From a virus, in UHGV virus genome UHGV-0183637: a stretch of 36,660 bases of DNA. The stretch is one strand, 5' to 3'. The position numbers and the translations under genes are program-made. This document shows positions 1,429 to 5,710 of this stretch, piece after piece. The number at the start of each line of letters is the position of its first letter. The stretch's first letter is position 1. The notes beneath the pieces are model-generated. The model ran no database searches and was not told where the DNA came from. It saw only the letters and a program-made list of their open reading frames with translations.

Positions 1429-2055
1429 TCATGCTGATTTCTTGTTTACAGGCTTAGTTTCTTGCTCCGGTGTGACGGGAACGCGATCACCTGGTGTTCC
1501 TGCTCGGATACAGGATTTGGCGCGTTGCAAAATCTCTTTGTCAGTTTCTTCATTACCAGCCAATGCCACGCAAATGGCCTCTTTTAGAGAGTCCCTTATG
1601 TTTAAGTTACGTATAACAGTTTCTATGTCTGTTTCTACTGACGTAGCCAGCCGATTCAAAATCCCTTTTACACCAATTTCTGATGCTGCTATCGCTAACG
1701 CTTTTCGATCCTTACTACTCACAAATCCTAACAATGAAACGATTAACGCAACAGAATCATCGTCGCAATCGAACTTTGGTTCGATTTTTTCATAATTATT
1801 CGAATCATTGCCTTGTGGTTGTTCTCCTGTCAGTAGCCACATAAGTGAAACACCACAGGCATCGGCAACCCTTGCTGCGCTATCAATGGTTGGGTAACTA
1901 TCTCCCCTTAGGTATTTCCTGACAGATGCTTCAGATAAGCCACTACGGCGAGCAATCTCACTTTTGTTTAGCCCCCCCATCGCTTTTTCCAGTCTTTCGC
2001 CAAAGCGTACTATTTGCTCATTATGAAAAGTACGATCATGTTTAATTGATGTCAT
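1429..2055 (-). CDS. Prophage repressor, XRE/lambda-CI-type HTH with uncharacterised C-terminal domain
   Basis: 208 aa. N-terminal HTH segment LNKSEIARRSGLSEASVRKYLRGDSYPTIDSAARVADACGVSLMWLLTGEQ. Leftward-transcribed and divergent from ner-A-B, the position of Mu c. GGGAGA RBS-like sequence upstream on the minus strand. No obvious S24 peptidase motif in the C-terminal half. Confidence 0.8.
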   Translation of the reverse strand: MTSIKHDRTFHNEQIVRFGERLEKAMGGLNKSEIARRSGLSEASVRKYLRGDSYPTIDSAARVADACGVSLMWLLTGEQPQGNDSNNYEKIEPKFDCDDDSVALIVSLLGFVSSKDRKALAIAASEIGVKGILNRLATSVETDIETVIRNLNIRDSLKEAICVALAGNEETDKEILQRAKSCIRAGTPGDRVPVTPEQETKPVNKKSA

Positions 2056-2237
2056 AGCGTACTATTCTCCCAATCTTGTTGATATACAAAGAAAATTTCA
2101 GTGAATCGTACTTTTGTGCTGATCTTAATAAAAGTACGATTATTTTCTTGACTTCGTACTTTGGTTCGATCTATCCTTTATCACATTCGATAATCGAATT
2201 TGATTATCGATTTCGATAAACGTGAGAGGATCACACA
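2056..2237. promoter_or_regulatory. Divergent early promoter/operator region between repressor and ner
   Basis: Perfect 12-bp inverted repeat AATCGTACTTTT (2104..2115) and AAAAGTACGATT (2130..2141) with 14-bp spacer. Further CGTACT(T/A)TT copies at 2058 and 2155 and AAAAGTACGAT at 2026 inside the repressor 5' coding region. Cluster of TCGAT-containing repeats at 2165..2217. Confidence 0.55.
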
Positions 2238-2516: not shown

Positions 2517-4559
2517 GTGTGGTTTGTAGTGCGGGATTGCCTGGGATTATCCGGTTTTCCATCAGCAGAAAAAAACATCCGGGCACGTCTGGATCGTCTT
2601 GCTGAAAATAACCCGGAATGGAAGCGCAAGCGTGAAGGCACCAAAGCATTCGAGTATCGCATCGACTGCCTGCCCGCTGAAGCGCAGAAAGTTTTACGTA
2701 AGCGCCTGACCCATCAGGTCCTGGAAGATGCACAACTGCCCGCCGTAGTTGAGCAGAAAGCAGTTAAAAACGTCGCCGTTCGCGATGAACTGGAGGTGAT
2801 GGTCAAATGCCCGGAGCTGGCATTACGCGAAGTCCAGTCACTGACCGACAAGCAAAAGGCCATCGCTGATGCGCGGATATTGCTGGCTACTGAAGTGCAT
2901 AAGCTGCGCGAGTATGCCGGAATGACCAGGAAGGCCGCTTTAAAGCACATCGTTGATGGTGTGCGCATGGGGGCGTTACCTGACCGCATTATCGAAGCAG
3001 CGAATACTGCAAATGCACGTCAGGGAAAGCGAACCGGTGTCAGCACCGGCAGCCTGGATAGCTGGTACTCCAGCTGGGTGATGGCGCGCGGTGATGCCAA
3101 TCAGTTACTGGCGTTACTGGCTCCCGGTCATCATAAGGGAACACCGTGGGAGCAGGTCTGGTGGTTGAGCGATTTCTTTATGTTCTATCGCTCATGGAAG
3201 CGCCCGACCGTTGAATACGCGTATCGCGAGTTTTCAGCCTGGTGGCATGAAAAACACGCGAATGATGCGGGAATGCTGGCGGCACTGCCTTCAGTTCACG
3301 CAGTAAGACGGGTGTTAAGCAGCGTCCCGGTGATTGTTAAAGAGCGTTTCCGCTCCACCGGTTCAGCCTGGCGTTCGCTCAATCCCTTTGTGCGGCGCGA
3401 CTGGACATCGCTACCGGTTAATGCGGTATGGGTCGGAGATGGTCACTGTATGAAAATGACCGCGTTTAACCCCCTGACCGGCAATATTTTCCGGCCAGAA
3501 GTGACGCTGGTTATGGATGCGGGGCAGCGTTTTGTTGTGGGATGGTCACTGTCCCTGTCGGAGAACGTGATAGCTGTTGCTGATGCGTTGCGTTACGGCA
3601 TGGCGCAGCACGGGATACCGCTGATTTATTACTCCGATAACGGGGGCGGTGAAAAAAACCGGGTTCTTGATGCCGATATTACCGGGATTCTCCCCCGGCT
3701 GGGTGTGGAACATCACACGGGGATACCAGGTAACCCGCAGGGGCGCGGGGTGATTGAAAGGCTTAACAAGGAAATTCCCCGGGATGTGGCCCTGAGTTTC
3801 CAGACGTACTGCTCAAAGGGAGCAGACAAGGAAACCGTAATGATGCAGCAACGGATTATGCAGTCAGCCATTAAGGCCACCCACAAAGGGAAAGAACTGA
3901 CAAAACGGCAGGTTAAGGCGAGGGATGAAGTCCCCACCTTTGAGCAACTGATGGCAGCCATAGAACTGGAGGTCAGACGCTATAACAACCGGCCACACAG
4001 CAGCCTTCCCCGCAAAGAGGATGGCGAATATTACAGCCCGGCAGCGTATCGCCGGAAACTGATAAAAGAGCAGAATGTTGAAATTGATTTCCTGTCGCCG
4101 GAAGAACTGCATGAAATGTTCAGACCGGAAGTGACGCGCAAAACATTTCGCGGGGAAATTCAGTTATTCAACAATATTTATTACTCGTATGAGCTGGCCG
4201 CAGAGCACGGGAATGAAGTCAGGGTCAGTTACGATATTCATGATGCAAACAGCGTCATTGTCCGGCGGGCTGATGGCTCTTATATCTGCGATGCCATCTG
4301 GAACGGTAACAAGGTTGATGCCTTCGCTAAACCAGTTATCGAGCAAAAACTGGAGAAACGCGTCAGAGGCCGCATTGCACGGGCCGCGCAGAAAATCGAA
4401 GAGGCTAAACGCGAGCTTACCCCGGCTATTACGCAGAAGCCTGAGTTTAATCTGGGATATGGACTGGAACGCCAGGAGAAAAAGGAAAAAGAAGAACTTT
4501 ATTTATTCGCATCTGAACGCGAGCGCAATTTAAAGAAAAACGGCACAAACAACCGTTAA
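2517..4559 (+). CDS. Mu-type DDE transposase (MuA-like)
   Basis: 680 aa, GTG start after an AAGGTGGA RBS. N-terminus M-WFVVRDCLGLSGFP parallels MuA MELWVSPKECANLPGLP (enhancer/operator-binding domain). Central region WVGDGH...LVMDAGQRFVVGW...YYSDNGG is consistent with a Mu-family DDE core. Confidence 0.9.
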   Translation: MWFVVRDCLGLSGFPSAEKNIRARLDRLAENNPEWKRKREGTKAFEYRIDCLPAEAQKVLRKRLTHQVLEDAQLPAVVEQKAVKNVAVRDELEVMVKCPELALREVQSLTDKQKAIADARILLATEVHKLREYAGMTRKAALKHIVDGVRMGALPDRIIEAANTANARQGKRTGVSTGSLDSWYSSWVMARGDANQLLALLAPGHHKGTPWEQVWWLSDFFMFYRSWKRPTVEYAYREFSAWWHEKHANDAGMLAALPSVHAVRRVLSSVPVIVKERFRSTGSAWRSLNPFVRRDWTSLPVNAVWVGDGHCMKMTAFNPLTGNIFRPEVTLVMDAGQRFVVGWSLSLSENVIAVADALRYGMAQHGIPLIYYSDNGGGEKNRVLDADITGILPRLGVEHHTGIPGNPQGRGVIERLNKEIPRDVALSFQTYCSKGADKETVMMQQRIMQSAIKATHKGKELTKRQVKARDEVPTFEQLMAAIELEVRRYNNRPHSSLPRKEDGEYYSPAAYRRKLIKEQNVEIDFLSPEELHEMFRPEVTRKTFRGEIQLFNNIYYSYELAAEHGNEVRVSYDIHDANSVIVRRADGSYICDAIWNGNKVDAFAKPVIEQKLEKRVRGRIARAAQKIEEAKRELTPAITQKPEFNLGYGLERQEKKEKEELYLFASERERNLKKNGTNNR

Positions 4560-4577: not shown

Positions 4578-5471
4578 ATGAGTTTAATTACGCAATTAAA
4601 TGACGTAATGGCCCGTCGCGGCTATACGCAAACCCACGTCGCCCGTGCTATTGGTCGTAGCAGCGCCGTTATCAACCAGTATTTACAGGGTAAATATCAG
4701 GGCGATATGGCTGATATTGAAGAACGCATTTCTGCCTTTGTGACCCGTGAGCGGGAAAAGGAAAACAGCCGCCGTATTAAAGCGAAATTTGTTGCCACCG
4801 GTATGGCTGCCAAAGGACTGGAGGTGTTGGCCTATGCTCACCTGGAATGTGAAATCTGCGTACTGTATGGCGCGGCAGGTCTTGGCAAAACAATGATTCT
4901 GCGTGAATACGCCGCCAGAAACCGGGATGCGGTCCTGATTGAAGCCGACCCGGGCTATACAGCCAGAACACTGCTTGAGGAGTTGTGCCGCCAGCTGGGG
5001 GTAAAGGTTCGCGGCAACATTCACGAACTGATAGATGCCTGTGTGCGCGAACTGCGTGATTCCGGTCGCCTGCTGATGGTGGACGAGGCTGAACTGCTCC
5101 CCTATCGCGCACTGGAGGTTCTGCGTCGTCTGCATGACAAAGCGGGTATCGGGGTTGTCCTGGCGGGTATGCCTCGTCTTCTGATTAACCTTAAGGGGCG
5201 TCGTGGTGAGTTCGCCCAGTTATACAGCCGTGTGGCGCTGGCGCTTAACCTGGGCGATACGTTGTCGCAGGAAGATTTTAACCAGATAGCTACCGGGTTG
5301 ATGCCGGAAGCAGCAGAACCGGAAATCAGCGAGGCGCTTTACGCACGCTCGCTGGGTAATGCCCGCCGCCTCTTCAAACTGGCGCGCGGTGTGTACCGGA
5401 TTTGTGATATCAGCGATGCACCGGTCAGTGTGCAGGCCATTGATAAATTCGCAGAAATGTTAATTCACTGA
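4578..5471 (+). CDS. Transposition ATPase / target DNA activator (MuB-like AAA+)
   Basis: 297 aa. N-terminal HTH-like segment (GYTQTHVARAIGRSSAVINQY), Walker A GAAGLGKT, Walker B LLMVDEAE. Immediately downstream of the transposase gene. Confidence 0.85.
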   Translation: MSLITQLNDVMARRGYTQTHVARAIGRSSAVINQYLQGKYQGDMADIEERISAFVTREREKENSRRIKAKFVATGMAAKGLEVLAYAHLECEICVLYGAAGLGKTMILREYAARNRDAVLIEADPGYTARTLLEELCRQLGVKVRGNIHELIDACVRELRDSGRLLMVDEAELLPYRALEVLRRLHDKAGIGVVLAGMPRLLINLKGRRGEFAQLYSRVALALNLGDTLSQEDFNQIATGLMPEAAEPEISEALYARSLGNARRLFKLARGVYRICDISDAPVSVQAIDKFAEMLIH

Positions 5472-5710
5472 TGGAGAACAAGACGATGGACAAGCAGACC
5501 ATTAACGCCGTCCGTTCCCGTGCCCGTGTGGCCATCCACACCACCGGCGGTCGTGTAACGGGGCAACATCACCGTTTACCTGTGGTTTATGCCTGCCCAC
5601 CTGTGGGTGGTCCTGTATGGCCGGTAACGGAAATCATCCAGACATTCAGTGGCCTGCGTCGTGTGGTTAAAACGTCCTGTATCGACGGCTGCACCGTCGT
5701 ATGGCAGTAA
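5471..5710 (+). CDS. Hypothetical early protein
   Basis: 79 aa; start overlaps the B stop (TGATG), suggesting translational coupling. No recognisable motif. Confidence 0.45.
   Translation: MENKTMDKQTINAVRSRARVAIHTTGGRVTGQHHRLPVVYACPPVGGPVWPVTEIIQTFSGLRRVVKTSCIDGCTVVWQ

Follow-up and report, generated by a model that had tools for sequence, protein, structure and literature searches.

The C-terminal tail of the phage Mu repressor, Repc, is a conditional ClpX recognition signal (PMC10584840, PMC3983244) that controls sensitivity to ClpXP (PMC10584840). Together with the C-terminus of MuA, this tail defines basic C-terminal ClpX signals (PMC3983244, PMC8138137), and the consensus for ClpX C-motif-2 is R/H-x-K/R-K-Φ (PMC3983244). 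Heteroimmunity of Mu and D108 has been attributed to exchange of a cassette in which the transposase N-terminus is replaced too (Mizuuchi 1986, as cited in PMC3820752). Sequence data have already revealed CI-like repressor heads in transposable phages, namely in Sp18 and in the D3112 group. Sp18, a relative of the element described here, is reportedly not inducible by mitomycin C (PMC2669165).

The locus that we describe, positions 1429–2237 of a 36,660-nt stretch of DNA (the window), forms the immunity switch, repressor plus operator, of an E. coli prophage that is transposable and Mu-like. As a system, it is a modular variant of a switch already known. The first part of the window consists of E. 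coli chromosomal genes, with the start of a transketolase gene and a transaldolase gene that is truncated at 1116, and the prophage begins at 1117. In further complete E. coli genomes, homologous elements start at exactly the position equivalent to 1117. Their neighbours are unrelated genes (aslB, ytfQ, araJ, melR and fliH), as random transposition predicts. In the window, the prophage splits the transaldolase gene, upstream of the transketolase gene (1–1116), and the interrupted pair is probably talA-tktB. The open reading frame at 511–1236 on the minus strand is a chimera, in which tal coding sequence is fused to the left end of the prophage.

The repressor gene, equivalent to Mu c (1429–2055, minus strand; 208 amino acids plus a stop codon), lies at the left end of the element and is divergent from ner (2238–2507), the transposase gene A (2517–4559) and B (4578–5471), all on the plus strand. 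Mu has the same layout. The early genes are of Mu type, as a preliminary description of this DNA had claimed: ner, a Cro-like early regulator, matches PF13693 (E = 1e-19) and phrog_769 and aligns with Mu Ner; the transposase has a Mu-transpos_C domain and, at residues 8–140, the Mu DNA-binding domain PF02316; and B matches AAA_22. Megablast of the region against a phage collection gave no match. With tblastn against phages, only head-domain matches and one Klebsiella Mu-like phage, at 31% identity, were obtained. In RefSeq, the repressor gene is already labelled as encoding an HTH protein.

Two further features of the element concern its transposase. Immediately inside the left end is a pair of near-identical 15-mers, ATTCTGGGCGGAGTT (1133–1147) and ATTCTGGGCGGATTT (1207–1221), spaced by 74 bp, and tandem CGCTTTTTT(T/C)TG units follow at 1240–1275. 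These sequences are unlike the operator motif described below, and they are candidate transposase end-binding sites resembling L1 and L2. The transposase itself ends in ...NLKKNGTNNR (4525–4559), as compared with the RRKKAI-type ClpX tag of MuA. Since such a tag is missing, remodelling of this element's transpososome by ClpX may rely on a signal different from that of MuA.

Architecture and kinship of the repressor

The 208-aa repressor was expected to have an XRE/CI-type head in place of the Mu c DNA-binding domain, and a C-terminal half without an S24 peptidase. Both expectations are borne out. The protein matches HTH_3 (PF01381) at residues 27–74 (E = 4.9e-9, above the gathering score) and Phage_CI_repr at residues 20–79 (E = 8.8e-6). 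Neither PF02316 nor any S24 model matches it, even at E ≤ 1, and a BLASTP comparison with Mu Repc found nothing. Among structures in the PDB, the family profile matches the N-terminal domains of P22 C2 and of the 434 and 186 CI proteins. The full-length AF2 model (mean pLDDT 64.5) consists of the HTH, a linker that is disordered at residues 81–97, helices only thereafter, and a disordered tail from residue 186. The five-helix HTH occupies residues 18–76 (1828–2004, minus strand, as for all repressor segments given here), with helices at 18–26, 31–38, 42–50, 57–67 and 71–76 and pLDDT values of 85–89. Met26 was considered as an alternative start and rejected because HTH helix 1 would be lost. 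The linker, residues 77–100 (1756–1827), has pLDDT values of about 40–45 and differs in length and sequence among homologues.

The C-terminal half comprises an all-helical domain, residues 101–185 (1501–1755), and a disordered tail, residues 186–208 (1432–1500; pLDDT <50), that ends in ...TPEQETKPVNKKSA. An AF2 model of residues 97–208, built on a 42-sequence alignment, has a pLDDT of 80 and contains four helices, including one of 36 residues, again with the tail disordered. Pfam and NCBIfam have no model for this half of the protein, and domain searches and AF2 models agree on the absence of an S24 beta fold and of a Ser-Lys dyad. The preliminary description had named a confident S24 fold with an intact Ser-Lys dyad as the observation that would refute it; neither the profiles nor the predicted structures show one, and the non-peptidase assignment thus survives.

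The last ~110 residues are a mobile module among homologues, attached to differing heads. The module is marked by the motifs IGIKGVL, IRxLNIRESLKDAIC and AGNEETDKEIL and by a tail of the form ...TPEQETKPVxKKSA. A search of 1.84 billion representative proteins with the module profile retrieved only 47 clusters at 50% identity. In the 42 members that were scanned, the head matches HTH_3 in 22, Phage_CI_repr in 20 and PF02316 in five, the first two counts overlapping because both models can match one member. One member with a PF02316 head (P0043) is encoded next to ner, A and B, at the left end of its element, and between this head and Mu Repc the identity is 33%. Hence, the module is positionally equivalent to the C-terminal half of Repc.

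Profile comparisons point in the same direction. The repressor matches phrog_3037, annotated as “transcriptional repressor”, over residues 7–198 and profile positions 16–186 of 189 (E = 3.8e-34), and its C-terminal 112 residues alone match the C-terminal half of that profile (E = 1.1e-12). The Sp18 repressor matches phrog_3037 at 1e-62 and, at 2e-10, the C-terminal half of phrog_7148, the family of Mu Repc. The Mu protein in turn matches the C-terminal half of phrog_3037 at 1e-4. With hhalign, the module aligns with a Repc-family alignment over 93 colinear columns that reach both C-termini (E = 9.6e-5; also 3.3e-4). The score of this alignment, 27.5, exceeds the maxima of 18.5 and 20.1 obtained in 600 shuffles (300 column shuffles and 300 block shuffles). 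A broader C-domain profile of 37 sequences weakens the hhalign match, which is then confined to the first 39 columns, corresponding to the first helix pair (E = 0.002). A HMMER search with the C-terminal module does not reach Mu Repc, so the relationship rests on profile-profile and transitive evidence. We conclude that, at the profile level only, the C-terminal halves of the two repressors are homologous. By the same sequence evidence, the repressor is a full-length member of the Sp18-type family phrog_3037, and a domain-swapped relative of Mu Repc. The helical domain presumably serves oligomerisation and regulation. The preliminary description had seen no lead as to how induction is triggered; the PHROG links, the hhalign result and the Mu-type heads in sister prophages now supply one.

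Operator, early promoter and immunity cassette

Upstream of the repressor gene, the perfect 12-bp inverted repeat reported previously is exact: AATCGTACTTTT (2104–2115) and AAAAGTACGATT (2130–2141) are 100% complementary and lie 14 nt apart. The motif that it contains, CGTACTWTT, has five copies in the whole window of 36,660 nt, at 2006, 2026 (minus strand), 2058, 2107 and 2130 (minus strand), that is, only within 2006–2138. Shuffling gives an expectation of 0.29 copies, and none of 100 shuffles reaches five. A sixth copy, CGTACTTTG, lies at 2155–2163. Additional copies beyond the inverted repeat had been reported and are present, but where one had been placed inside the repressor coding sequence there are two, at codons 7–10 (DRTF) and 15–18 (IVRF), and a third falls between the Shine-Dalgarno sequence and the ATG. 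We number the sites accordingly. Within repressor codons 7–18 lie sites 1 (AAGCGTACTATT, 2003–2014) and 2 (an inverted site of the AATCGTACTTTT type, 2026–2037). Site 3 (TAGCGTACTATT, 2055–2066, plus strand) separates the Shine-Dalgarno sequence from the start codon, sites 4 and 5 form the inverted repeat (2104–2141), and site 6 is CTTCGTACTTTG (2152–2163, plus strand).

We aligned the window with four loci whose repressors are 49–70% identical to that of the window: a second E. coli element (L003) and elements from Yersinia (L008), Citrobacter (L009) and Edwardsiella (L007). In these five loci, which represent four genera, the invariant columns gather on GTAC-centred sites, five or six of them and in matching positions; further invariant clusters mark a −35 hexamer and a block upstream of ner. 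Sites 1 and 2 are invariant in all five loci, including at synonymous codon positions, a rare ATA isoleucine codon among them. This argues for constraint at the DNA level, and part of the conservation could be due to protein-coding constraint. Sites 4 and 5 are conserved in place in all five loci with a diverged spacer between the arms, and site 3 is retained in the Citrobacter and Edwardsiella loci and degenerate in the other two. Enrichment of the GTAC-centred repeats, and their retention in position over four genera, argue that they constitute a real operator. The ~40-bp spacer between the two clusters of sites is not conserved, and the IHF consensus (WATCAANNNNTTR) has no match in the window; a Mu-like IHF site is therefore not supported.

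Two of the aligned elements look defective. The Citrobacter element lacks A, B and the early region: downstream of its ner come ~660 bp without called genes, and next the genes for holin and lysozyme. In the Edwardsiella element, the transposase region is broken into open reading frames of 325 and 213 amino acids. The repressor-operator-ner unit is intact in both.

A promoter scan identified a single good σ70 match, TTGACT-18-TATCCT at 2148–2177 on the plus strand, which points toward ner and is our candidate early promoter, Pe. Site 6 lies in its spacer. The −35 hexamer together with CGTACTTT is invariant in the five loci, and the Citrobacter version of site 6 forms a perfect palindrome, ATCGTAC-TTTG-GTACGAT. 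The same scan found no convincing leftward promoter for the repressor gene (Pc). Between Pe and ner, at 2178–2222, is a block of TTATC/GATAA repeats, with direct repeats at 13-bp spacing and a 29-nt inverted repeat. This block is almost invariant among loci that have the same ner. In an element with a different ner (L002, positions 5580–5640), it is replaced by GGATAACAC...GTGTTATCC...GGATAAC repeats. The block is likely to be the operator for Ner, and it could also hold enhancer sites for the transposase.

A separate palindrome, perfect and with 8-bp arms (AATCGAAC-TTTG-GTTCGATT, 1767–1786), lies within the linker codons of the repressor gene. Over 28 nt, its region is 79% identical to the site 6/Pe region (2154–2181), with GAAC replacing GTAC. 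The palindrome may have arisen by chance, or it may act as an additional weak operator or as a terminator-like hairpin.

How is this control region inherited? Heteroimmune E. coli relatives share with the window the DNA from 1117 to 1602, at 94% identity, a stretch that takes in the left end and the final 57 codons of the repressor gene; homology to one such relative, L002, resumes at 2611. The swapped cassette of ~1 kb thus consists of repressor residues 1–151, the operator, ner and the first ~31 transposase codons. Breakpoints relative to L002 and L005 recur at about 1602–1604, in the conserved IRxLNIRESLK codons, and at 2611–2685, in the transposase N-terminal domain. The ~31-codon N-terminus of the transposase (2517–2610, plus strand) is the start of the Mu-type winged-helix, enhancer-binding domain; it differs between heteroimmune elements, and the sequence beyond it is the same. 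Elements with the CGTACTWTT operator, including the Yersinia element, have a transposase N-terminus of the type FPSAEKNIRA...PEWKRKR, and elements with other repressor heads carry other N-termini. The repressor gene itself can be further divided. The second E. coli element, L003, shares head, operator, ner, transposase and tail with the window element, and the middle of its repressor (L003 positions 4009–4248, window positions 1625–1834, about residues 74–143) is unrelated at the DNA level. Hence, the repressor is itself mosaic, built of three parts (head, middle and tail).

On a reading that we consider less likely than not, two unrelated folds, the XRE HTH of the repressor and the Mu-type winged helix of the transposase, have co-evolved to recognise the same control region of ~160 bp. 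Because the winged-helix head co-varies with the cassette, it would still have to read the operator region, part of which would be encoded in the first 18 repressor codons. Such an arrangement would break the rule of Mu, in which repressor and transposase compete for operator and enhancer through homologous DNA-binding domains.

Route of induction

What triggers derepression when the repressor is not a peptidase? Since the protein lacks an S24 domain, a beta fold and a Ser-Lys dyad, RecA-mediated autocleavage is not expected, and we consider it unlikely. The homology of the C-terminal half to that of Mu Repc indicates Mu-like, non-SOS control. Furthermore, the reported failure of mitomycin C to induce Sp18 and the absence of a LexA box from the 36.6-kb window, beyond which the right end of the prophage (~2–3 kb) extends, both fit a non-SOS route. 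The tail is invariant in 21 homologues at G189, T195, P196, K205 and K206, despite its predicted disorder. In the hhalign comparison it aligns, as ...NKKSA, with the Mu Repc tail ...PSQEPQEVKKAV (...QEPQEVKKAV). It ends in KKSA, without the terminal hydrophobic residue of the C-motif-2 consensus. We regard it as a candidate conditional ClpX degron.

We propose the following model. The helical domain would hold repressor oligomers together, and these would bind the six GTAC-centred sites cooperatively, in two clusters: sites 1–3 over the 5ʹ end of the repressor gene and sites 4–6 over Pe. Bound repressor would block Pe and silence ner-A-B, and sites 1–3 would probably serve autoregulation of the repressor. 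The TTATC/GATAA block that immediately follows Pe would be the binding site for Ner. By homology to Mu Repc, derepression would most likely follow from conditional exposure of the ...KKSA tail to ClpXP, possibly with Lon, giving induction that depends on stress or stationary phase or is spontaneous. We infer the oligomerisation, the sites bound and by what, and the protease route. As a whole, with its modular repressor, six-site operator and Mu-like derepression, the model is in our judgement probably correct, a view that we hold with moderate confidence; for the ClpXP step taken by itself, the chances for and against seem roughly even.

Several other routes can be envisaged. The C-terminal half might serve oligomerisation only, with the switch flipping stochastically through competition between Ner and repressor and through dilution, and with the tail modulating DNA binding rather than proteolysis. 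The presence of invariant residues in a disordered tail favours instead a linear motif that is recognised, and the homologous tail in Mu controls sensitivity to ClpXP (PMC10584840); we therefore consider a purely stochastic flip unlikely. A different possibility is that a separate antirepressor, controlled by LexA or by another stress response, inactivates the repressor, the helical domain being its docking or oligomerisation surface. That domain has no assigned fold, and XRE-type repressors without S24 commonly use antirepressors. Indeed, the non-cleavable XRE repressors of coliphage 186 (Tum) and of the Gifsy phages are antirepressor-controlled. The right ~2–3 kb of the prophage, beyond the window, could hold an SOS-controlled gene of this kind; within the 36.6 kb of the window, no LexA box occurs. 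Control by an antirepressor seems to us distinctly improbable.

The CI-like N-terminal domain also raises the question of whether the repressor could be a cryptic autocleaving protein like LexA or lambda CI, with an S24 domain too diverged for detection. The D3112-type transposable phages of Pseudomonas, which share this type of head, have repressors annotated as CI-like or S24. However, no S24 model matches even at the permissive threshold given above, and the AF2 models are helical throughout, which makes such an explanation barely credible. Mu-like derepression through the C-terminal module is the reading that we prefer, and it provides a testable answer, other than SOS, to how such prophages are induced. 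Prophages of this type are frequently found in E. coli, Salmonella, Citrobacter and Yersinia; relatives of the O157 prophage Sp18 are among them.

Comparison with known systems

The repressor shares with 186 CI an XRE head on an all-helical, non-catalytic C-terminal domain, and in both cases the operator has multiple sites. The C-terminal domains of the two proteins have no detectable similarity in sequence or fold, and a LexA-controlled antirepressor like Tum is not seen in the window, which stops short of the right end of the prophage. With the lambda CI/LexA type, including the CI-like repressors of D3112 and DMS3, the resemblance is in the HTH head, which is 36% identical to the D3112 group over residues 15–97. 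Unlike those proteins, the window repressor lacks the S24 domain, the beta fold and the context of a Ser-Lys dyad.

A closer counterpart is the Sp18-type repressor of E. coli O157:H7 Sakai (ECs_4943, phrog_3037). It too has a CI/XRE head, a helical C-terminal domain and a short basic tail, and its gene, divergent from ner-A-B, occupies the left end of a Mu-like element. In contrast to Sp18, the window repressor has a head of another HTH subtype (one that matches HTH_3 and not Phage_CI_repr alone), an extra conserved segment in the C-terminal domain (IRxLNIRESLKDAIC..AGNEETDKEIL) and a longer tail. The operator sequences differ, and there is no DNA similarity at the level of megablast.

Three aspects of the locus appear not to have been described previously: a Mu-type C-terminal module that occurs across three head classes, operator sites embedded in the repressor coding sequence, and a transposase N-terminus that co-varies with an unrelated repressor head. 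Our analysis defines a compact repressor C-terminal domain that has no Pfam or NCBIfam entry and is joined to at least three kinds of DNA-binding head. Head-swapped repressors, with their matched transposase N-termini, form a natural set for studying the coupling of operator and transpositional enhancer.

A further counterpart is the c repressor of Mu and D108 (Repc, phrog_7148). The window repressor has the same genomic role and position, a C-terminal half that is homologous at the profile level, and a tail of the form KK-[A/S]-x, and in both systems heteroimmunity involves exchange of a cassette that includes the transposase N-terminus. The head of Mu Repc is a PF02316 winged helix that has a homologue in the enhancer-binding domain of the Mu transposase, whereas the head of the window repressor is an unrelated XRE HTH. 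Hence, in this element the repressor and the transposase no longer share a DNA-binding domain.
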